From Diadema antillarum (taxonomy: Eukaryota), in assembly GCF_040938485.1 (NCBI RefSeq), contig NW_027271016.1, positions 1,780,436 to 1,844,435 of the forward strand: a stretch of 64,000 nt of DNA. The letters are read 5' to 3'. A program made the position numbers and the translations under genes. Below the pieces are notes generated by a model. It was given only the letters and a program-made list of their open reading frames with translations. It was not told where the DNA came from and ran no database searches. The stretch's first letter is position 1; every line of letters begins with the position of its first letter. This document shows positions 14,570 through 53,489 of the stretch, in pieces.

Positions 14570-15660
14570 GAAAAATCATGCACACGAGGGTGTTGATAGG
14601 GGCATATCCCCTCCCACACGAAGGTGATTTTGTGTTTTCAGACCTGAAATTCAGCGATCTGGTGCAAATTTTTGGTGCAATACTTTTTCATCGAAGTGTT
14701 AAAATCACGGAATTTAGCTCTTATTCCGAATGTGCATCGCTGTGTGTATGTACAAAGTCTAGTGAGGTAGAGCTTAGGGGAAGGGGGATTCCCCCTCCCG
14801 CTCGCGGAGCTTTTGCGTTTTTAGAATTGAAATAAAGCGATCTGGGGCACACTTTTTGTGGAAAATTCGGAAATTGTCATTCCCAAAAATGTACTAAGTC
14901 TATAGTGGGTAACAAGCAATGAATGGGTGGCAAGATACCTCTCCCATATTCAAGGGAGCCTCTTTTTTTTTCAGTTTTAAGCTTTTAGAACTGAAATTCA
15001 ACAATCTGGCGCACACTTTTGTTGAAATATCTGGAAATTTGTCAATCAGAAGAGAAGTGTAGCAAGTCTGTGGAAGGAGATTTTGTATGATTTTCTGATT
15101 GCAGTTAAACGTTTTGGTGCACACATTTTGTGTCATATTTGGAAAACTGTTTATGTTCAAAGTGTAGCCAAAGTCTACTTCTATGCATGGCGGGGGGGGG
15201 GGGGGGGGGAGGGGCGGGCTAGCAGGGAGAAGGCGTGGGCGAGTGTTATCTCCACCCTTCCCTTACGATGGAGCTTTTGCTTTTTTAAGGTTGAAATTGA
15301 GATATCTCGTATACGCATATTTGATGGAGTATTTGGGAAATCACAAACAAACAAACAAAAAACTGACTGGGGGGACTGAGGGAGGAAGGGGTCGATTAAA
15401 AGGGGAAATTTCCCTTATACATGAGGGCAGTTTGAGTCTTTGGAATATAAGTGATAAGTCTTGTGCACTCAGAATTATTCATAATTTTTTGTAAATCTAA
15501 AAAGTGTACTAAGCTAGGGAAAGAGGCACAGAGGGGGAGGGTTTGGGAGGGGGATACCCCCTCCCAAGCACGAGAGATTTTGCATATTTTGAATTGAAAT
15601 TCAACGATCTGGTGCACACTTTGAGTGAAATATTCATAAAAATATGATATTATTCGATGA
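14570..15660. repeat. Second, more diverged satellite (about 170-bp unit, at least 6 copies). Each unit has a GGGGnnnCCCC palindromic core followed by ..TTTTGCnTTTTnnGAATTGAAATTCAnCGATCTGGTGCACACTTT..
   Basis: The GATCTGG[GC]GCACAC anchor recurs at 14660, 14838, 15005, 15110 and 15606. Poly-G tracts lie at 15190-15212 and 15755-15775. Confidence 0.6.
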
Positions 15661-16822
15661 AAGGTTGCAAAGGAGACCCGCTTCATGTGCATGCATACAG
15701 TATACACGCATTTTTTTTCCGCCTCCCAAATCCCCGGTCCAAATCTTGGGGGGGGGGGGGGGGGGGGGGGCGACCGCCCCCATCGCCCCCTGGCTACGCC
15801 AGTGACGAAACGCAGGTCTGTATGTATGTAGTTGTTTTTGTCGCTGTTGCTATTATTTAAAGGTCGACGTCAGTACGCAAAATGCCATGCAGGAGAAGTT
15901 TATTATTATTATTATCATTTTTAATCGATAGATGACAGCAAATGTGACTAATCCACGCCAATCGCTGATCCAACAAGGACTGACGCCAAGACGTTGTGGG
16001 TTGCTCCGCTTCTGTGCAGAATCGCGATTGCGCTATTGTCCTCTACATGTACACCGCTCACAAAGCCCAATTCAGCAAAATTTGAGAGTGAAATCAGTAA
16101 GAACTCGCTTTGCACAGGCCATATACTTAGTAATCAGCAAACACTGAACGATTCTCTCCCTGCCTTTCATCGAGACATTGCATATTCCATAGAAGACTTT
16201 GATGAAAATCAATTCAATTCATTTATTTTCATACTTCTCATTTATGAATATTACATCAGAAATAATACTACAAGTTCTTTTACCTTGTCAACAATGTGCA
16301 AAAAACAACCAATATACATGGTAATAACACAGCAATTGTAATGATAACTGGTCGAAATCGAAATTGGGTTGAACAAAGATAAGTATGTCGGGACCTACAT
16401 GAAAGCAAGCTTGTTTGGCTGTAAGCTCAAAGTAATCAGCGTTTGTGAAAAAGAAACGGAGAACGGATAGAAGATTAGACCAGGCGATTAATAGTACCAA
16501 ATAAGAGAAGCGGGGTATGCCTATATGTGATTCAAAAAAAAAATAATAATAATAAAAAAACCACCAAACCAACTAGTATACTAACAATGTGAACCGTTAT
16601 AGTGACCGAGCTGTCATTCGTTTTCCGGAGTAGAACATAGGGCCTACTTTGGTATACACTTAACTAAACTGTTGGGGCATTAAAACTATCACAAAGTTAT
16701 ATTTAGTAAAACCAAGGAGGTACTAGGCAAAGCCTAGTACCTCCTTGGTAAAACACAGAGAGTGACGTGTACAGTTATTCAGCCATTTGTTGCCTGGCAT
16801 AAGCTCCTCAATAAATCAATTT

Positions 16823-22330: not shown

Positions 22331-24227
22331 CTGCATGGGGAAAAAAAAATTTAACATCGAAATCAACTGAGACTGAGTACAGCTCCTTTCAAGTTGAGAA
22401 GGTGACTGGCGATGTTTAAAGGGAAATTCCAGACCACTTAAAGGTGTGTCTGAAAAGAATGAGTAAAATGTGGCAGGCACAAAAGCGAAAATTTGATAAA
22501 AAATGGATCAAAAGCAAGGGAGTTAAGAAATTTCAAAGATTTGCTTATTTTTGTATTACGGTTCTCAAACAGTTGATCTGAATATGTAATGAGTGAGCTT
22601 ATGATGTTATCATCTCACAATATTCCATTAATTGTGTACCAAAAAATGGCACAAATTCAATTTTTCTGGTTTTTAAGTATAGAATATGTTACTCCTGATT
22701 GAATAACTTCAAAGAAAACATCAGTCAGATATATGGGCATAACTGTGTTTGATGAAAAGCCTGGAAATTTCATGAGTTTATGTACATACCGTGTGGAAAA
22801 TTGTGAGAGGATGACATCATCCACTCACTATTTGCATATTCATATTGACCGTTCCAGAACTGTTTTGTAAAAATTAGTGAAATTTCTCAATTCTTAATTT
22901 TGACATCACAAGCTGTTGTAGTCTTCTCATCTAGCAGTGACTGAGAAGAAACTTCAAAAATTCACAACTTTTGAATGGATTGTCTGATTTTTCCCAAACT
23001 TTCATTGTGTTCTACTAATATTGCTGCATTCACTCAATCTACATGTCTATGAAGGTGGACTTGTCCTTCAATGTCCGAGAAATTTGTACATCACAGTATC
23101 ATACCAGATAACCACTGAATTTACATCCTAACTTGTGATTGAAAGAATAGGGAGACAAGATCTTGGCTTTAACACTCAAAATATGCAATTTGAGTGTCAA
23201 AGCCTCTCAAAAGGTGTTACACTATCAACATCAGATGATGACCAATTCACCTTGAGCATGTTCTTGTTTTTTTTTCCTGCCTCCCAAAAATGGCACAATT
23301 TACATTTTGCCCTATGTTTACTTCCCCTCCTCCCCCTGTAATTTAATGAAAAAGTGAAAAAGGAAAAAGAGAGAGGGAAAAAAAATGGTTTGCAAGCAGA
23401 TGCCCCCGCCTGGCAGAGTTCCGGTGGGAGGAGGAGGAGGAGGGACGGATGGAGGAAGTGATGGAGGAGGGTGAACGACAAGGTCACGGGAGGTCATCCT
23501 CCTTCCAAGAAGCCGCATTGGCTTGAAGGGGGGGGGGGGGGGGGGAGGGGGAGGGGGGAGGGGGATGTCATCTGAAAGATGCAGACTACTGCCTCCACTT
23601 TGATAAGAGGCGATTGGGGTCGTGAGGGGGAGACAGATGGGTAACAGGAAGAGGAAATGGCTTGCACATGCACGGCTTGGTTTGTCCTTGCCTAAAAAGC
23701 AAACGCTAGGCATCTGTTGTTGTTGTTGTGTTTTTTTTGGTGTTTTTTTGACAGGTCTAAAATTACTGCATGTGCAAATGCTTATTGAATGTGACAGCTG
23801 AAGTGACACACATGGTAGGATGGACGCAACATTTCCATTTGCTACATTTAAACCAAAATGCACGTACATCAGAGGATGATATCTCATCTCTAAATATAGA
23901 GCCCACATAGCTTTGGATGAAGCAGGGGCGGATCCAGGAATTTCGTAAAAGGGAGGCGCCTTTGCAAAATTTAAGGGGGGTGCACGCACCCCCCATTTTT
24001 TTCTTTTTATTTCTTTTAATCAAAAATAAAGAGGGGGCACGCACCCGGTGCGCTCCCCTCTGGATCTGCCACTGTGAAAGCATGAATTTCTGCCCATCGA
24101 CGGCCTCGCAGTGCACTCACTCACATTCATTTTGCTACAAGTTTCGTCATCTATCATGACAGCCAGCACAAAAATGTTCCCTAATCTCAAACAGATATTT
24201 CCAGTACTAGTATATTATATGTGCATA

Positions 24228-43935: not shown

Positions 43936-44754
43936 ACTGGCTACATTGCTACAGTGCTCCGCAACGGGGTTAAATCAATTCAGAGGGTGGCAGGGCCAGG
44001 GACTAAACTCAAACAAAGTGTAAGAACAGTGAGAACAAAGAAGCTACAGATCTCAGTCTAACGTTAGTGTTTAATGTCTTGCCCTCGCCTTGGTCTTGTA
44101 CACAGTCAATTAAAAATTGCGACAGGCCTATTGTGCACAGGACAAAGAGATTTTTCTCCTTCATAAGCTCTTTGGTACAGGATTAGAACTAGGTAACATT
44201 ACTATGGTCGGAGTCATTACACACATCAAAACTTATTTAAATTTTACCAGCAGCGAACACTACGGATGGGTCTACGCACTTCACGTCTTGTATTTTTCAT
44301 AAAAGTGTAAGGAAAATACTTGCCTTCGTTGGTTTAGAAGTGTTCTGACTATACACAGCTGACCTTTTATGATGTTGAGACCCCATTGTCGACAAAGAAA
44401 AATCAAAGTATAGAGGTAAGACTGCAAAACGTCCGGTGTCAAAGGGCTTTTATCGTCTGTTCATGTTCGGACTTTCCCAGTCCAAATCCATTTGTTGTCA
44501 TTAGCCACCGCATCATCACCCCGTGCATAAAAAGCTTGCTGCAGCTGCAGCGCTACGACGTGCAGCGATGCAACCGTAGTACTACATGTACATCGTTTTA
44601 TGAATTTGCCTCCCTCTATTGGCAAGATAACGGTCATACTGAGTTTTCGATTGTCATAATCCAAAAAATCTGTGAATAAACATAGCCTGCTAAAAATACA
44701 AAATTATAAAAATACACGAAAATACATAAAATACAGAAAAAATACAGAAAATAC

Positions 44755-46325
44755 AGCCGTGGAGATTGCACCAGCAGTGACTTTACTTTTCCAAGCTTCT
44801 ATCAGCCAAGGAAAAGTGCCTTCACAGTGGAAGAAGGCTCAGATCGTTCCATTGTTCAAGAAAGGAAGTCGCTCTGATGCTGCAAACTACAGACCCATTT
44901 CTCTAACATCCGTACTGTGTAAGCTGTGTGAACACATATTTCACTGTGCTGTAATCCGTCACCTGACTGACAACAACATCATTTCGGATGCCCAGCATGG
45001 TTTCCGCAAACTGAGATCGTGCGAAACACAACTCATCTGCATGCTGGATGACCTTGCCAAGGGTTTAGACATGAAGTCACAAATTGATGTGGTCCTTCTC
45101 GATTATGAGAAGGCCTTCGATAAAGTCTCCCATCGACATCTCATGGAGAAGGTCCAGCACTATGGAATCTGTGGTAAAACAGCAGATTGGATATCTGATT
45201 TCCTCCACTCACGCACACAATCTGTTCTTGTTGATGGCCAGGAGAGCAGGGAATCCCCTGTTACATCGGGAGTCCCACAAGGAAGTGTCTTGGGCCCCCT
45301 GCTCTTCCTCATCTTCATCAACGACCTGCCGGACTGCATCTCAAGTTCATCTGTCAGACTATACGCTGATGATAGTGTGGTTTACAGGCACATTTCTTCA
45401 CCTGCTGACTCAACCCGCTTGCAGAGGGACTTAGATGCAGTTCAAGAATGGGAAGCGAAATGGCTGATGCGATTTAATGCTACCAAGTGTCAGGTCTTGC
45501 AGGTCACCAACAAGAGGAATCCCGTTCCTGCCTCCTACACCATTCATGACCATGTACTACAAGTTGTCCGCTCAACCAAATACCTGGGTGTCCATATCGA
45601 TTCAAGATTGAATTTCAACAATCATGTGGATACTGTCACCAAGAAAGCTAATGGTACTCGAGCCTTCTTCTCACGCAACCTACGTCATAGCAGCCAAAAA
45701 GTCAAAGAAGCTGTCTACACAACATTCATCCGACCAACTGTCCAATACGCAGCGACTTCATGGGATCCGCACACACAACGGAACATACACAAGCTTGAGC
45801 AGGTTCAGAGAAGTGCAGCTCGATTTGTCACGGGCGACTTCGAAAGATCTAGCAGCGTCACAGCCATGCTGGATTATCTCAAGTGGCCTCCACTGCAGGA
45901 ACGTCGCTCCCAAAATCGTCTGCTGATGATGTATAAGATCAGACATCACTTGGTTGACATCCATTGGCAGACTTACCTGACCCAGCTCTCAAAATCTACC
46001 AGAGGACACTGTTCCCGATTCACTATCCCCCACACCAATACTACAGCGTATGCCAACTCATTCTTCCCACGCACCATCCGGGACTGGAACAGCCTGTCTG
46101 TTGATCCTGCCACATACCCATCCCTCATCGCCTTCAAAACTGCGCTGAGGGAACTCTGTAGGATGTAACTCTTCATCCAGAGATTTTTACTCGCACCTGT
46201 AAATATTTTTCACCTGATTTCAAATTTCTGTTGCCCCGGTGCGGCGTATGCGCATGTTCTCGCAGTGCGTTCATCCTCGACCATTTGAGGGCAGCACTTT
46301 ATCGGAAGAAGAAGAAGAAGAAAGT
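44755..46325 (+). mobile_element. 5'-truncated non-LTR retrotransposon (CR1/L2-like LINE): RT domain ORF 44672-46168 plus 3' UTR ending in a (GAA)n tail
   Basis: The 498-aa ORF carries NYRPISLTSV, QHGFRKLRSCETQL, LLDYEKAFDKVSH, GVPQGSVLGPLLF and YADD reverse-transcriptase motifs. No ORF1 or endonuclease lies upstream. A microsatellite-like (AAATACAG)n sits at the 5' junction. Confidence 0.85.
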
Positions 46326-48424
46326 CTCAATGTATTTCGTCTTACATATCTAAGTCGACGAACTTATTTCACTCCAGTCCTGAAATTTGAATATGGAGGT
46401 CAATCTCATGATCTGCTCAAATTCCGATCAGAAAGCATTAATGTGGGTTGAGTGAATATAGCAATATCAGTGGAACACAGAGAAAGTTTGAGGGAAATCG
46501 TAAGTCCGTTTAAAGGTTAATTCTTAAGGCAGACATCATTTGATTTGGAGACTACAATTTGTGACGTCACGTGTTAAGAACGATTTAAAGGAAATACAAA
46601 GAAAATTCAACACAATTATTTTCACTTTTATGGCATGATGAAAGAACATTTACCTTACTTTCAGATAGAAGGAGAAATAATATTAACATTAACATTATGT
46701 CGGTAACAAGTCAAGGTAATGTGCACTTTCCGTGGTTCTTGTAGATAAATAAAATGTTAATATTGTTTATATAAATGATGTTCATTTGGAAGTTTTGCTG
46801 AGGGTGATTTGCCCCAGAATAAAATCAGAGCACTGCCATGCTTCTTCGCGATCAACATAATACTCATCTTTACGAGTCTTTATGGGTAAGGCCCCAGTCA
46901 CACAATGCTCTGCGTCCGGTGTTACGTCCAAAAAAGTAATTTTTTCTGCGGATTCCCGCGGATCCCTCGCCGTCCCGTGAAAATTTTGACAAAACTTACG
47001 ACAGAAAAAGCGGGTGATACGGACAGATACGACCAGATGCGGATACTTGCGTCCACTTGCGGATAATCTTACGAATTGAAACGTAATTCGTTCTTTCGAC
47101 TTGCGTTAACTTCCGAATACTTCTGAACACTTGCGGAAAGTTGCGAATATTTACGGAGATTTGCGAATATTTTCGAATAGTTGCGGAGAGTTACAGATTG
47201 GTATGAATAATTGTGGACAATGTGGTTTTCTCGGGAGACCCCTGCTTATTCGGTGTATTAATGTCAGCAAGGTTATCACATTTATGACTGTCTTAGTACA
47301 ATGGGGGAAAACTGAAATTATGTCACGTTCAAGTTGTGGATGAAGACTTTTCGTATTATTTTTTATTTGTTTAATAGCAATAAAAGAAAAATGAAATTTT
47401 GAACTTTTTGAAATTTTGAAAGTTTTTCATTTCAATTGTGCAACTCAAATGTGAATGTGTATCATAAATGATTTTATCTTATTTCATTTCGTTTTATTTC
47501 TGCCTTTTTCACAAAATATTTACACGTAACAAACAATTTTCCAATACTGTAATCATGCTTTATCCAACACAAAATTAATATAAATATCTTCAAGTAAACG
47601 TACCAATATTGAAATATTGTATAAGTGAGTTATAATCATACTTGAATTATTGCGGAAAATCATTGATATTTCAATCGAATTAATGCAAACAAATTGGAGG
47701 AGACCGTCATCTTAAGCTAAAGCTAAGCTAAAGCTTGAATTTGATGACGGTCTCTGGATAAGCATATAGCTTATACTTCATTACAAATCATTTAATACAT
47801 ATTAAAGTGTATAACGGAGTTCCATATCAGGGTACGTACAAATGCATCAGTGCAAAGGTGTTGTAAGGTGAGTTAGGGTACAAGTGCATATGTGCAGTTA
47901 TGTTGTTTGATTATTGAAGTGAAATTTGGTGCTATTCAGAAAAAATGTGTATATCTATTTTCATATAAAAAATAGCATACACAATGTTTATGTATGGATA
48001 TATGTGCGGATACGAGTCATGTAATGTTAAAAGGTGGTGAAAAGAATAAAGTGCATCTTGGTAAATAAGAACTGCGTCCGCACTCTGTGTTTTATCAGAC
48101 ATGGAACCCTTCAGAAATTTAAGATTTCACTTCAAAACTAATTTATGAATTAAAAAGATGTATGACTAAATGCATAGAATACATAACATAATTATACCAC
48201 GAATAAAATACTACATGGATCGATAAGTTAAACAATATAGTAAGAAAATATAGTTTAGAGTCCTAGAATAGACAAATTTTGGTTACGTTGTAATTGTGCA
48301 TGGATATTCATGACTTACTGGATTATGTTACGAAGACTGTTAAAGTAATGCTTGATAAATTTCCAGACAAAAATGGACTTTAGAACACCCCCTCCCCCAC
48401 CCAGATACAATATAAAATATGTAT

Positions 48425-49963
48425 ACGCATTCCATGGAGTGTAGAATGGCTAAGACTACAGAGAAATACTAAATTCGTTCTCATTTTTTTTATATAGCTT
48501 ATCGCTGTCCCACACCTTCGCCAGGCCAAAAAAGTAAATAGAATGCTGTCACTCTATCCCCTACCAAAAAAATATTGACCCTTTCGAATAATATACATTC
48601 AAGGTTACAAGGAAAACAAGTTCACCACCCGGGGTCGACCGATGTCATCTGTATATGGGTGTCATCTTAAATTGACCATTTGCGGGGAGAAATTTCATAA
48701 CTCGACCATGCGGTTGTACCACTCCACCGCTCCGACTGTGTTATAGTATTCCTTCAGGTACATGCGCTATAGTGGTTTCCCGGAGTCTCTGCTCCCATGG
48801 GAGTGGAAAACGGAAAACGTCAAAGGACGCAGTTGTCCGCAGCTTTCGTGACTGTCCGCAGATGTCCGTAAGCAGACGTAAGTGTTGTGATACGTTAACT
48901 TGCGGTTAATTTCGGATACTTACGGCGGACGCAAATGAACGCAAATGGACGGGAGGTAAAACATTTTGCGGATGGTCTGCGTCCAAGCTACGGATAGTTA
49001 CGTTCAGTTACGGATAGTTACGTTTAGTTACGGTTACTTGCGTAAGTCTGCATCCGTGGAGTCCCTCTGCGAAATTTTGAACATTTCAAAATTTCGCAGG
49101 CTTGGTGCCGTCATTTTGCGTTTCTTTACGGATTAGTTACGGACAGTTACGTCTACATACGACCCTGCGGATGTCTGCGTCCACGCTGCGTCCCCCTGCG
49201 TCCACTCATCCGTATCTATCCGCAGCGGACGTAACCCATCGTAAGGCATTGTGTGACTGGGGCATTACGTCCGCCGCGAATAGATACGGATGAGTGGACG
49301 CAGGGGGACGCAGCGTGGACGCAGGCATCCGCAGGGACGTATGTAGACGTAGGGTTCTGTCCGTAACTCATCCGTAAAGAAACGCAAAATGACGGCGCCA
49401 AGCCTGCGAAATTTTGAAATTTTGAAAATTTCGCAGAGGGACTCCACGGATGTAAACTTTCGCAAGTTACCGTATCCACCAAACGTAACTATCCGTAACT
49501 GAACGTAACTACCCGTAGCTTGGACGCAGACCATCCGCAAACAATTTTACCTCCCGTCCGTTTGCGTTCGTTTACGTCCACCGTAAGTATCCGAAATTAA
49601 CCGCAAGTTAACGTATCACAACACTTTCGTCCCCTTACGGATATTTGCGGACAGTTACGGATGCTACGGACGATTACGTCCTTCGACGTTTTCCGTTTTC
49701 CACTAGCATGGGAACACAGAGACTCGTGGGAAGCCACACAACTCATGTTGCGAAGCTGCAGCGCATTTACCTGAAGGAATGCTACAACACAGTCGGAGCG
49801 GTGGAGAGGCAGAACCGTATGGTCAAATTATGAAATTTCTCCCACAATTGGTCATTTTAGGTGGCACCCATATGTGGGACAGCGATGAACTATATAAAAT
49901 GAGAACAAATTAAGTATTTCTCTATAGTCTTACCCACTTTACGCTCCATGGAATGTGTATTGC

Positions 49964-50015
<52 letters not shown>

Positions 50016-50075
50016 ATGCAATACACATTCCATGGAGCGTAAAGTGGGTAAGACTATAGAGAAATACTTTGCCCA
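48425..50075. repeat. Large near-perfect palindrome (arms about 800 bp, centre about 49250) inside the 5.9-kb element; centre carries a terminus-like motif GCATTGTGTGACTGGGG
   Basis: I compared the reverse complement of 48425-49232 with 49267-50075 segment by segment. They align throughout with scattered mismatches. The right arm ends in a second perfect palindrome centred on (TA)n. Confidence 0.75.
49905..50075. repeat. About 170-bp palindrome centred on (TA)22 (cruciform-capable)
   Basis: 49905-49965 is the reverse complement of 50012-50075 (CATTCCATGGAGCGTAAAGTGGGTAAGACTATAGAGAAATACTT), flanking (TA)n at 49967-50011. A third copy of the arm lies at 48425-48480. Confidence 0.8.
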
Positions 50076-50268
50076 TGAAATTTTGCCTATGATCAGACAT
50101 GTTTTCATGTCTGTTTCAGAAACGGGTTTGATTAAGATCTTTTGTCACACCATAGGCATGAAGAGTGTGACCTTGCCTTTCAGTTTTTGAGAGCTAAGCT
50201 CCGTTTTTAAGATCTTCAAGATCTATGATATATTTTTTACGGCGTTCTTCTTCTACCAATTCTTTTAC

Positions 50269-50279
50269 TTATATCTATA

Positions 50280-50334
<55 letters not shown>
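50269..50334. repeat. (TA)n of about 30 units inside the 5.9-kb element
   Basis: Seen directly. Confidence 0.95.
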
Positions 50335-50341
<7 letters not shown>

Positions 50342-50909
50342 GGGTGTGGGAGGGGTGTTTGAAAGTCTTGATGTCTTTTTTTTTCTGGAAATTTAATAAG
50401 CATTGCTTTATTACCAAAATCTCCTTAACATAACCCAATAAGTCATGAATATCGCTACACAACGTCAGCGTAACCACAGTTTGTCTATTCCATGACTGTA
50501 AGTAATATTTTCTTACTCTAATGTTTAACTTATCGATCTATATTGTATTTTATTTGTGGTATAGTTATGTTATGTATTCTTTACATTTATGACGTTTATT
50601 AAGTTGCACAAATATAATTTAAACTTCAAGTTCAAAATTTCATATATCTTTTATTACTGTAAAGCAAATTAAAGGATTACGAAGTTTTTTCACAACTTGT
50701 ACGTAATTCAATTTCAGTTTTCCCCAGTGTATACAATGTAAGACAGTCCAATATGTGATAACCTTGCTGTCATAATACACTGACTTAGCAGGGATCGTCA
50801 TAGAAAACCATATCGTCCATAATTATTTATAACAATCTGTAACTATCCGTAACTATCCGAAAATATCCGCAACTCTCCGCAAGGGTTCAGAACTATTATG
50901 TGCCAATTC

Positions 50910-52576
50910 CAGTGGCGTATCTAGGGAAAACGGCGCCTGGGGCAAGCGCGAAAATTGCGCCCCTAATTTCTGAAAAAGACTATTGTTCAACCCCAACCCC
51001 ATCCCGGTAGGGACTTTAAGCAAAGTGCACATGATATGCTTTTCAAGCCCTTAAAAGGGGTCTTTTGAGGGTGATTTAAATGTAATGAATTTTGATAAAT
51101 TTTGGCGAGCGAGCGCAGCGAGCGAGCCGAAAATTTGTGTATTTCAGCTGACAAAACATGGAATTCTAGTCATTTTTTGCTTATCAAATCTTACAATTCT
51201 AATCAAGATAGTGACGGCCTTATAGATAACGATTTATCTATACCAACAAACTGAGTACTTTAAAAAATATTCTAAATCAGAGGGGCATTTCATGAAGCAT
51301 TTTGTCCGACAACTTGTCGGACAAAATTTGCTTTCAGCCAATCAGAAGCAAGGATTTCAGTAGCTTTTAACAGTTTGTCAGACGAAATATCTGACAAATT
51401 GCTTCATGAAATGCCCCCCCCCCCCCCCCATGTACGCGCGAGTGAGCCGAAATTTGTATATTTCCGCGTCATCATCACGTTTTGTTCTTATCTCCTTTTT
51501 GTTTTGATAAATTTTGGCGAGCGAGCGCAGCGAGCCAGCCGAAAATTTTTGTATTACAGCTTACAAAACCTGGAACTCTTGTCATTTTTTGCTTATCAAA
51601 TCTTACAATTCTAATCAAGATATAGTGACGGCCTTATAGATAACGATTTTTACCAACAAACTAAGGAATTGAAGAAATACTCTGAATTAGTACGAGCGAG
51701 TGAGCCGAAATTTGTATATTTCCGCGTCATCATCATCACGTTTTGTTCTTATCTCCTTTTTGTTTTGATAAATTTTTGCGAGCGAGCGCAGTGAGCGAGC
51801 CGAAAATTTTTGTATTTCAGCTTACAAAACATGGAACTCTTGTCATTTTTTGCTTTTCAAATCTTACAATTCTAATCAAGATATAGTAACGGCTTTATAG
51901 ATAACGATTTTTACCAACAAACTGAGGGTTTGAAGAAATACTCTAAATTAGTACGAGCGAGTGAGCCGAAATTTGTATATTTCCACGTCATCATTACGTT
52001 TTGTTCTTATCTTGTTTGATTTTTTTTTTGGCGCCCCCCCTCCCCCCCCCCCCGTATGTTCGAAACCGTTGGCGCCTTCTTTTGATCCAATTGGCGATCG
52101 CTTCAGAACGAAAGAAATTGCAGCCGCTGCTCAGTGAAACATTTTGCCTACTAAATATAAAATGACACGTGTGAACACAATAGACATTGTCATTTTGTCC
52201 GATTCATCATCACATTTTGTTCTTACCTTCTTCTTCTATATAAAATTTAGAGAGCGAGCGCAGCGAGCGAGCCGAAAATTGTATTTCAGCTTACATAACA
52301 TGGAATTCTTGTGTGAACACAATAAACATTGTCATTTTGTCCGAGTCATCGTTATGTTTTGTTTTTATCTTTTTTTGATTTGGTTTTCTGCCCCCCCCCC
52401 CCGCACATTCTTCCTCCCCCCCCCTTCCGGTGAGTTTCTTCTTCTTCTTCTTTTCTTTTTTCGTTTTTTTTTCTTCGTTTTTTTTTTCTTCTTCTTCGTT
52501 TTTTTTTTGCGCCCCCAAGGAGTGGCGCCCGGGGCACGTGCCCCCCTTGCCCCCCCCCCCCCTAGATACGCCACTG
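50910..52576. mobile_element. Nested non-autonomous hAT-like element inserted into the right TIR of the 5.9-kb element; perfect 17-bp TIR CAGTGGCGTATCTAGGG with an 8-bp TSD GCCAATTC
   Basis: GCCAATTC occurs at 50902-50909 and 52577-52584, immediately flanking perfect inverted termini. An 8-bp TSD with CAG termini is typical of hAT. The interior holds about 3.5 tandem copies of a 270-bp unit (GCGAGCGAGCGCAGCGAGCGAGCC motif) and long poly-C/(CTT)n tracts. Confidence 0.55.
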
Positions 52577-53489
52577 GCCAATTCGTAAGAATATCCGCAA
52601 GTGGACGCAAGTATTCGCATCTGGTCATATTTGTCCGTATCGCCCGCATTTTTTCCCCGTATGTTTTGTCCAAATTTTCTGGTGACGGCAAAGGATCCGC
52701 GGGAGTCCGCAGAAAAAAATTACTTTTTTGGAAGTAACGCCGGACGCAGAGCATTATGTGACTGGGGCCTTAAGTTCCACTACAATAAGTTATCGCCTTA
52801 GCTAGAGCTTCTTTACTATACACTTCAGTTCAATGATCGAGTGCACATTTCTTAATTTCCATTACTCAACAATCATTTTGATATATACGCTACACAATCA
52901 TCTCTGTTTGCAAACGTCAATGTGTTTTAGACACAACTGAATTTTAGCGCCGTTCACGATCACGTGCACCGTTGATCTTGTCTGCTGTCATCGGGGAGTG
53001 ATGATTTTCAAGTCGCTTGTCCATGTCTTTCTAACACTAATATCCCCCACAGCCCCTTTTTCTTTGTTTTCTTTCTTAGCATCACCTGTGTACATGACCG
53101 TGTATGTTTTTTTGTGTAACTGTTTTGTTGTGTAAAACTAGTTTGTTTTTGTTGTAGTTAAGTAAGCCGATAGTTCATTGAAACTGTTTATTCATTTATT
53201 TATTTGTGCATGAGGCCCCAATATTAAGCTCGGCTTACTGGGGATCCTCCTACATGGTACCTTGACATTTTTATTATCATTATGTCTCCGTTCTTTGTCA
53301 CAATGATTATTTTACTTACCTGTCATGTGCAAAATCAGCCATGACTTTATTTTGAACCATGTGTTTATTTCTGAAAGTGATCAGAGGTGATTATATCATT
53401 TTACCATACAGAAACAATATGAAATGAAATGAAATGAAATATTTAAGGCACTTTCTGGCCTTCTGTTTGATACCCTTTCGATATTATAA

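Follow-up and report, generated by a model that had tools for sequence, protein, structure and literature searches.

A probable non-autonomous hAT transposon with an internal 261-bp tandem array, nested in an older palindromic element of Diadema antillarum

Positions 50910-52576 of a 64,000-nucleotide stretch of Diadema antillarum DNA (the window) form a segment of 1,667 bp (~1.67 kb) with inverted repeats at its ends and a tandem array inside. The locus raises the questions of what kind of element this is and whether the array is a foreign cargo or a part of the element's own design. We consider it very probable that the segment is a non-autonomous hAT DNA transposon lying in the right arm of an older host element, and that the array is a module typical of its family. 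It belongs to a group with the termini CAG(T/G)GGCG(T/G)A..C.AGG, short insect members of which have been published as 'Pegasus-like' MITEs.

The ends of the element are defined by terminal inverted repeats (TIRs) and a target-site duplication (TSD), as follows.

50902-50909, no strand assigned: left 8-bp TSD copy, GCCAATTC, same letters as 52577-52584
50910-50926, + strand: left TIR, CAGTGGCGTATCTAGGG, 17 bp, starting with CAGTG
52560-52576, - strand: right TIR, exact reverse complement of the left TIR CAGTGGCGTATCTAGGG
52577-52584, no strand assigned: right 8-bp TSD copy, GCCAATTC; 52579-52584 pairs with GAATTG of the host left arm (47073-47078)

An earlier note on this DNA had described perfect 17-bp TIRs directly flanked by an 8-bp duplication. 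The TIRs are exact, and the duplication is perfect at both sides; GCCAATTC occurs twice in the whole window, solely at these two positions. When up to three mismatches were allowed, the 17-mer TIR gave three matches in the 64 kb, against 0.05 expected. Mates for solo termini at 12837-12853 and 23923-23939 were looked for, and none was found. Gap-free pairing of the TIRs ends after 17 bp; further inward, GGCGCC...TGGGG.C..GCGC.AAAA is common to both ends, with indels. The TIRs of hAT elements have the consensus start YARNG, a pattern that the CAGTG of this element fits, and a length of 17 bp is within the short-TIR range for hAT (about 10-25 bp).

The insertion interrupts the right arm of a host element, the arms of which were mapped as follows.

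46887-47406, + strand: host left arm, a long TIR with 10-bp periodic subterminal repeats
50628-50909, - strand: host right arm, inner part, up to the insertion point; 79% identity to 47151-47406
52585-52772, - strand: host right arm, outer part, beyond the insertion; 52579-52772 has 88.7% identity to 46887-47078

Insertion excepted, the host is a 4.2-kb palindromic long-TIR element spanning 46887-52772. After in-silico excision of 50910-52584 the right arm was collinear with the left arm (46887-47400) across the join, with a score of 468. The idea that the insertion splits the host's right TIR was borne out by this rejoining of the arms, save for one blemish, a 31-nt indel: the left arm has ~31 extra nt (47076-47110) adjoining the join. 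The host arms are older, and the hAT-type insertion came later. A TSD of the host palindrome was also looked for, and nothing was seen beyond a possible TA.

Chance, or local rearrangement of a repeat-rich region, could in principle produce such repeats with no mobile element involved, and this region is rich in palindromes and low-complexity sequence. Such an account is already effectively refuted by the collinearity of the host arms across the insertion, by the presence of the same 17-mer at the ends of elements with 8-bp TSDs at many unrelated loci, and by the TSD counts given below. The perfect 8-bp TSD, moreover, lies beside a perfect 17-bp pair, and the duplication alone would arise by chance about once in 65,536. 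We regard the probability of this account as negligible.

The exact 17-mer ends at least 120 loci in a few invertebrate-host-associated metagenomes. Among 65 candidate TIR pairs from these loci, the 8-bp TSD was perfect in 12 and had one mismatch in seven, and mis-registered (shifted) controls gave no perfect TSDs. The TSD cases comprise 18 that are non-redundant, and the matching never runs past 8 bp. A search for the 17-bp TIR with 8-bp TSDs elsewhere, proposed earlier as a check, was thus answered by these metagenome loci and by a second element in the window, at 13689-15804. At its right end, over ~72 bp with the TIR included, the window element has 75-86% identity to 13 metagenome loci. 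These relatives come from other hosts, and no window sequence beyond the terminal ~72 bp matches them. A scan of viral contigs for the TIR gave two isolated matches, which were put down to chance from database size.

Elements with the identical 17-mer TIR contain decayed remnants of a hAT C-terminal domain (...IASCERSFSKLKL...), and in three of them (L096, L104 and L110) such a remnant is found together with a perfect TSD. The reconstructed remnant peptide had 237 homologues, with a best E of 7e-32, nearly all carrying PF05699 (the hAT dimerisation domain); its direct Pfam match scored 16.7 bits, under the curated cut-off of 21.4. These internally deleted hAT elements (loci L003-L122) share with the window element the identical 17-mer, the 8-bp TSDs and the subterminal layout GGCACGTGCC, GGCGCCACT and GGGGGCGCAAAA, and differ from it in retaining a decayed hAT C-terminal domain and in lacking a large internal tandem array. 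The description of the element as hAT-like and non-autonomous is therefore supported by 8-bp TSDs in related elements and by hAT remnants in elements with identical TIRs.

An 8-bp target duplication is not exclusive to hAT, and a non-autonomous element of another superfamily with 8-bp TSDs (e.g. P, Zisupton or Merlin) would also generate one; the data are compatible with P in this respect. Among the elements examined, no full-length transposase was found between such TIRs, so that no intact hAT transposase is tied to them. Of the parts of a hAT transposase (BED finger, RNase-H-like DDE core and C-terminal dimerisation domain), the last alone was found, in decayed form and in elements from other hosts. 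The TSD sequences also depart from known hAT target preferences: GCCAATTC, and ACGAAACG from the second element, match neither nTnnnnAn (Ac-type) nor nnnTAnnn (Buster-type). A hand count was made of ten perfect TSDs, eight from the metagenomes and two from the window elements, after L041 (reverse complement of L005) and L110 (reverse complement of L079) had been dropped. T was at position 2 in four of the ten and A at position 7 in one, in what is a small sample set against a merely statistical consensus. What favours hAT over these superfamilies is the CAGTG start, with its YARNG pattern, and the hAT dimerisation-domain remnants in elements that have identical 17-bp TIRs and validated 8-bp TSDs; no further transposase domain was seen in the identical-TIR elements in a scan that was not THAP/P-specific. 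The hAT remnants in same-TIR elements disfavour the P superfamily, and we rate membership of another superfamily as highly improbable.

Counted against the hAT explanation as a whole are the failure to find a full-length transposase, the Pfam match under the cut-off, the restriction of the similarity with the metagenome elements to ~72 bp, the departure of GCCAATTC from the loose nTnnnnAn pattern, the 31-nt indel at the excision join, and the failure of the searches described below to find a second copy of the 261-bp unit.

The interior of the element was resolved into the following parts.

50927-51089, + strand: left subterminal region, non-repeated, with GGCGCC (50932) and GGGGCAAGCGCGAAAATTGCGCCCC; resembles subterminal parts of related metagenome termini
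51090-51281, + strand: copy A, an incomplete 261-bp core repeat (~0.73 of a unit); 88% identity to 51502-51690 and 51763-51951
51282-51417, no strand assigned: inserted hairpin (foldback) of 136 bp, 18-bp termini GGGGCATTTCATGAAGCA; dG -41.1 kcal/mol, z = -9.7
51414-51429: C16 run after the hairpin
51432-52012, + strand: contiguous 261-bp core array of 2.2 copies (B 51432-51692, C 51693-51953, D partial); TRF period 261, 93% matches, score 1022; 95% in a separate repeat comparison
52013-52168, + strand: block of T10, GGCGCC and poly-C, followed by a unique spacer in which GGCGCC is found again
52169-52374, + strand: degenerate variant units; 52198-52312 has 82-85% identity to part of the core, and 52311-52374 repeats 52169-52232
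52385 to ~52504-52510, + strand: low-complexity tract of poly-C, (CTT)n and T-runs
52505-52559, + strand: subterminal region of the right end, GCGCCCCC..AGTGGCGCC..GGCACGTGCC..poly-C, also conserved in elements of other hosts (alignment by eye)

The period of the array is 261 bp and not 270 bp as first proposed. Of the three to four copies that had been claimed, one of them interrupted by a hairpin, about three are present together with degenerate fragments; the hairpin does lie in the array, and the poly-C/(CTT)n reported for the interior is found at 52385-52510. The transition from repeat through T-run to GCGCCCCC is seen again at 52355-52395 and 52476-52516. The hairpin and the C16 run separate partial copy A from the remaining array, and the B/C unit junction is without the 136-bp hairpin. 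When a TSD for the hairpin insertion was looked for, none was recognisable. The small hairpin joined the array only once the array had already formed.

The element has no coding capacity: its only long open reading frame is without a Pfam domain, and the others are of 129 aa or less. It contains no Rfam match at gathering score and no tRNA. An RNA gene or SINE-like core was considered and rejected, there being just sub-threshold miRNA-hairpin matches, which fell on the hairpin. The 261-bp unit is absent from the rest of the window, from 120 metagenome loci, from 22.8 kb of D. setosum DNA and from a related ENA contig of 21 kb, and a synthetic six-frame peptide of the unit had no match in a collection of 5.8 billion proteins. 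The term MITE, used in the earlier note, suits the element in that it is non-coding and has TIRs and a TSD; at 1,667 bp, it is too large for the small size (<~800 bp) that the term, in its strict sense, implies along with a high copy number.

The second element in the window bears on how the array should be read.

13689-15804, + strand: second hAT-like element, TIRs CAACGGCGTATCCAGGA / CACTGGCGTAGCCAGGG; perfect 8-bp TSD ACGAAACG at 13681-13688 and 15805-15812
13737-14548: internal array of the second element, 271 bp x3.0

A flank-array-flank layout is common to the two elements. The 261-bp and 271-bp units aligned with a score of 35, against 29.9 +/- 5.0 for shuffles, and homology of the units beyond a GAGC-type motif was rejected. 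Each core repeat of the two arrays contains a single copy of this 21-nt motif (CGAGCGAGCG(C/G)AG(C/T)GAGCGAG), which is absent from the remainder of the window and is the one unexplained detail of the element. The array had been called an unusual cargo for a MITE. That view is not supported, as the second element has a similar architecture and tandem-repeat MITEs are well documented (PMC3879986, PMC4079207). Since the second element also carries an array, of 271 bp x3, the supposed cargo is a shared architecture and no oddity, and the array is best read as a family-typical module.

The alternative is a composite 'macro-transposon', in which like-type ends of two short elements mobilised a pre-existing satellite array as captured cargo. 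In favour of this, ...CTAGGG is present at both ends of the window element, whereas in the large metagenome family one end has CTAGGG and the second CTATGC. The internal block 52013-52060 (T10-GGCGCCCCC-polyC) is similar to the right subterminal region, as an old end might be, but its likeness to the terminus is weak. A free-standing 261-bp unit was found neither in the window nor in D. setosum DNA (22.8 kb). The second element, with the same layout, a different unit and a shared 21-nt motif, argues for a family module rather than capture, and we think a composite origin improbable.

On the preferred explanation, a non-autonomous hAT element with its own array, a hAT transposase supplied in trans would recognise the 17-bp TIRs and the GGCGCC-containing subterminal motifs, excise the element and insert it where the target DNA had been cleaved with ends staggered by 8 bp. 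The GCCAATTC duplication would come from repair of these ends, with the right arm of the older 4.2-kb palindromic long-TIR element as the landing site. The array may grow and shrink through unequal exchange, slippage or gap repair after excision.

The locus provides a clean, datable case of nested transposon insertion. It would also place the 'Pegasus-like' termini on hAT elements, found beyond insect MITEs in echinoderms and other marine invertebrates, and make the tandem-repeat module a hAT-type case of the established connection of transposons with satellite DNA. For the Diadema setosum genome, 25.9% 'unclassified' repeats are reported (PMC11066563), part of which the element could help to classify.

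Among known systems, matching termini are seen in the 'Pegasus-like' silkworm MITEs BmMITE-13 to -16 (Han et al. 2010), which are non-coding, have an 8-bp TSD without fixed sequence, and have the TIRs CAGTGGCGTACCTA and CAAGGGCGGATCCAG (PMC2997013). Set against the TIRs printed in PMC2997013, the left TIR of the window element agrees with CAGTGGCGTACCTA of BmMITE-15 at 13 of 14 bases, and the solo terminus at 23923 agrees with CAAGGGCGGATCCAG at 14 of 15. Compared on TIR and TSD alone, the window element has the Pegasus-like combination of an 8-bp TSD of no fixed sequence and a CAGTGGCG(T/G)A-type TIR. The silkworm families are 263-431 bp long, and neither an internal array nor a superfamily assignment is given for them in PMC2997013. 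The window element differs from them in its length of 1,667 bp, its echinoderm host and its 261-bp tandem array.

In internal organisation the element resembles pearl (oyster), DTC84 (Donax trunculus), and DINE-1 and its relatives, which consist of a flank, up to about five core repeats, a microsatellite-like tract at one end of the array and a flank with inverted repeats (PMC3879986). The number of core repeats varies, each core repeat has a conserved short motif within it, the target duplication is AA, and the one inverted motif is subterminal (PMC3879986). The same modular plan is seen here in the flank at 50927-51089, the 261-bp repeats, the poly-C/CTT tract at 52385-52504 and the flank at 52505-52559. 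Unlike those elements, the window element combines exact TIRs with an 8-bp TSD, in place of the AA duplication and subterminal motif, and it is therefore an analogue and not a member of the group. Elements of the pearl/DTC84/DINE-1 type are now linked to Helentrons.

The foldback-type elements Tetris and Galileo of Drosophila contain internal ~220-bp tandem repeats that are able to seed satellite arrays, and the Galileo repeats bear extra transposase-binding sites (PMC4079207). Both differ from the window element in having their repeats within very long TIRs, and both are members of other superfamilies. In the present case short TIRs bracket the array, and the foldback-like structure is that of the host and not of the inserted element. 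The Galileo repeats may serve as a model for the GAGC motif, which is reiterated as well. By analogy, the 21-nt motif might be a reiterated protein-binding site, either an additional binding site for the transposase or one for a host factor, which would make the arrays selected, transposition-enhancing modules and possible seeds of satellites. We hold this to be unlikely; if true, the arrays of this echinoderm hAT lineage would be under selection and not passive junk. As internal tandem repeats are known in such elements, the element is a tidy but ordinary example; it follows a known kind of tandem-repeat transposon and leaves current understanding unchanged.

The 8-bp direct duplication GCCAATTC reported in the earlier note was recovered on both sides of the element, and no further occurrence was found when the whole window was searched. 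It encloses 1,667 bp bounded, as had been claimed, by perfect 17-bp terminal inverted repeats (TIRs).

Features of the main element and its flanks (window coordinates)
50902-50909 and 52577-52584: 8-bp target-site duplication GCCAATTC
50910-50926: left TIR CAGTGGCGTATCTAGGG
52560-52576: right TIR, exact reverse complement of CAGTGGCGTATCTAGGG
51282-51417: near-perfect hairpin, 136 bp, with 18-bp termini GGGGCATTTCATGAAGCA
Downstream of the 261-bp array: T10/GGCGCC/poly-C block, then a unique spacer
52169-52374, after the spacer: two degenerate variant units
After the degenerate units: poly-C/CTT/T-rich tract, then a right subterminal region of ~55 bp

With up to three mismatches allowed, the 17-mer gave three matches in 64 kb, against 0.05 expected. 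The gap-free match between the TIRs is limited to 17 bp; inside it, GGCGCC and then TGGGG.C..GCGC.AAAA are present at both ends, with indels. The element has no credible coding capacity. Its sole long ORF (52144-52737) is of low complexity, has no Pfam match and extends out into the surrounding host element, and neither Rfam families nor tRNA genes were found in the main element.

The internal array had been described as having a 270-bp period, which TRF corrected to 261 bp (2.2 contiguous copies at 51432-52012, 93% matches). An extra 0.73 copy, 88% identical, lies at 51090-51280, and is separated from the remaining array by the hairpin and a C16 run (insert 51282-51429). The hairpin folds with -41 kcal/mol (z = -9.7). 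The junction between the adjacent core units at 51432-51692 and 51693-51953 is uninterrupted and lacks the hairpin, which must therefore have entered after the array formed, and which is a third level of nesting. The insert has no recognisable target duplication, and no other copy within the window. The poly-C and CTT content noted earlier corresponds to the tract beyond the degenerate units.

The host into which the element is inserted (46887-52772) is a large palindromic structure, ~4.2 kb long once the main element is excised. Its outer arms of ~520 bp end in TAAGGCCCCAGTCACA and carry 10-bp periodic subterminal repeats, and its inner region consists of stacked palindromes (48167-50589, centred near 49250) with (TA)n tracts. 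The host flanks show at most a possible TA duplication. We take this structure to recall the foldback/TU-type elements of sea urchins, as a likeness only and not a superfamily assignment. When 50910-52584 was deleted in silico, the alignment between the right arm and the left (46887-47400) ran directly through the join, and the retained duplication copy paired with GAATTG in the left arm at 47073-47078. The alignment was restored with flaws, namely ~31 extra nucleotides in the left arm beside the join (47076-47110) and a further 20-nt gap deeper in, both within slippage-prone 10-bp repeats. Excision restores collinearity of the arms, which supports the proposed nested chronology: the host arms came first, and the main element was inserted second.

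Beside the host lies a non-LTR retrotransposon.

44672-46168, plus strand: reverse-transcriptase ORF (PF00078)

In protein it matches a Diadema setosum entry at 92% identity, followed among the named hits by other echinoderms, and the DNA at 44754-46322 is 98.3% identical over 1,570 bp to D. setosum contig CAXXCE020000015.1 (GCA_964275005.2). The window accordingly derives from Diadema or a close relative. Repeats are reported to make up 37% of the D. setosum genome, and unclassified repeats 25.9% of the genome (PMC11066563).

At least 120 metagenome loci carry the exact 17-mer, and they come mainly from a few host-associated samples. When inward-facing termini were paired, requiring one exact end and no more than one mismatch in the core 10-mer, 65 candidate elements resulted. 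Flanking 8-bp duplications were perfect in 12 of these and had one mismatch in seven; when the flanks were shifted by 1-3 bp, no perfect duplications remained. Among the 18 non-redundant cases the flank matches end at 8 bp, and JAAUXV01 contigs contained, by eye, more short elements with 8-bp duplications. Further copies of the TIR with 8-bp duplications, for which the earlier note proposed a search, thus exist among the metagenome loci. The main element resembles these elements in its TIR and terminal ~72 bp (75-86% identity) alone; they are therefore relatives belonging to other hosts, not copies.

At seven of these loci (L075, L079, L081, L082, L106, L110 and L122; flank acgttgatct), a CAGTGGCGTATCTAGGG-family insertion in the metagenome hosts directly adjoins the remnant ...TSASCERSFSKMKLLKKF..., left by the C-terminal coding part of another hAT element. 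All seven share this junction, so the nested pair was either repeatedly sampled or amplified as a unit. A related terminus, ...CCCTGGCTACGCCACTG, lies in ENA contig ERZ25070167 (locus L124, near 10043). The contig also codes for a reverse transcriptase with 80% identity to that of the window, which suggests that the terminus group is present in another, possibly echinoderm-like, host.

The main metagenome family comprises internally deleted transposons of ~1.3-3.7 kb. Decayed frames ...IALQIMLTMAV.IASCERSFSKLKLVLSYLRAS...DFDEIIDDFASIKARKV were found inside three members (L096, L104 and L110) whose boundaries are validated by a perfect duplication. The peptide reconstructed from the consensus scored 16.7 bits for the hAT dimerisation domain, below the Pfam cut-off of 21.4. 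It had 237 homologues (best E = 7e-32), nearly all annotated with PF05699 and some named 'HAT C-terminal dimerisation domain-containing protein'. Together with the 8-bp duplications of the family, these remnants support the initial hAT-like classification.

Related sequences also occur elsewhere in the window.

13689-15804: second complete hAT-like element, 2,116 bp, with imperfect TIRs CAACGGCGTATCCAGGA and CACTGGCGTAGCCAGGG
12837-12853, minus strand: solo related terminus CAGGGGCGGGTCCAGAA
23923-23939, plus strand: solo related terminus CAGGGGCGGATCCAGGA
13737, 14013, 14284, 51106, 51518, 51779 and 52251, all plus strand: 21-nt motif

The second element is flanked by a perfect 8-bp duplication, ACGAAACG (13681-13688 and 15805-15812). 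It contains poly-G tracts and an array of 3.0 copies of 271 bp (13737-14548, 88% matches), followed by degenerate modules of ~150-240 bp with GGGGAT.CCCCCTCCC palindromes. No mates were found for the solo termini, both of which have GGCGCC 33-57 bp inside. This hexamer is enriched in the window (9 against 2.6 expected), and lies 23-57 bp inside four termini of the group. The 261-bp and 271-bp arrays have no significant overall similarity; common to both, once per unit, is the 21-nt motif CGAGCGAGCG(C/G)AG(C/T)GAGCGAG. All seven occurrences in the window (0 expected) fall within these arrays, and the motif was absent from all 124 fetched loci. The array had been regarded as an unusual cargo, but the second element, with its own array and the common motif, has the same flank-array-flank layout. 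Flank-array-flank is therefore an architecture that these elements have in common in this genome, and not the oddity of one copy.

The structure of the element, the 8-bp duplications throughout the family and the hAT-domain remnants are direct observations; the reading with the best support is that the main element belongs to the non-autonomous hAT elements and is moved in trans. Going by the established behaviour of the hAT superfamily, a transposase of this type would recognise the TIRs and the subterminal motifs. Having cut the element out, it would insert it at an 8-bp staggered cut, and repair of the stagger would leave the 8-bp duplication. Gain and loss of repeat units in the array would most likely come about through unequal exchange, slippage, or template switching in post-excision gap repair. 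Galileo, as cited in PMC4079207, is reported to have tandem repeats with extra transposase-binding sites, and such sites offer one testable model for the putative role of the GAGC motif.

Among known systems, the 'Pegasus-like' silkworm MITEs (TIRs CAGTGGCGTACCTA and CAAGGGCGGATCCAG; PMC2997013) have termini matching those of the main element, and both have 8-bp duplications. The TIR of silkworm BmMITE-13 matches the solo terminus at 23923-23939 in 14 of 15 bases. The modular layout of pearl, DTC84 and DINE-1 parallels that of the main element; in those elements the duplication is AA and an inverted motif is subterminal (PMC3879986), which makes the main element their analogue but not one of them. 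Tetris, whose internal repeats are documented to have seeded satellites (PMC4079207), presents the same theme of a transposon with internal tandem repeats. With the main element, this sea-urchin genome carries a non-autonomous, hAT-type element that contains tandem repeats and is of a kind already known.
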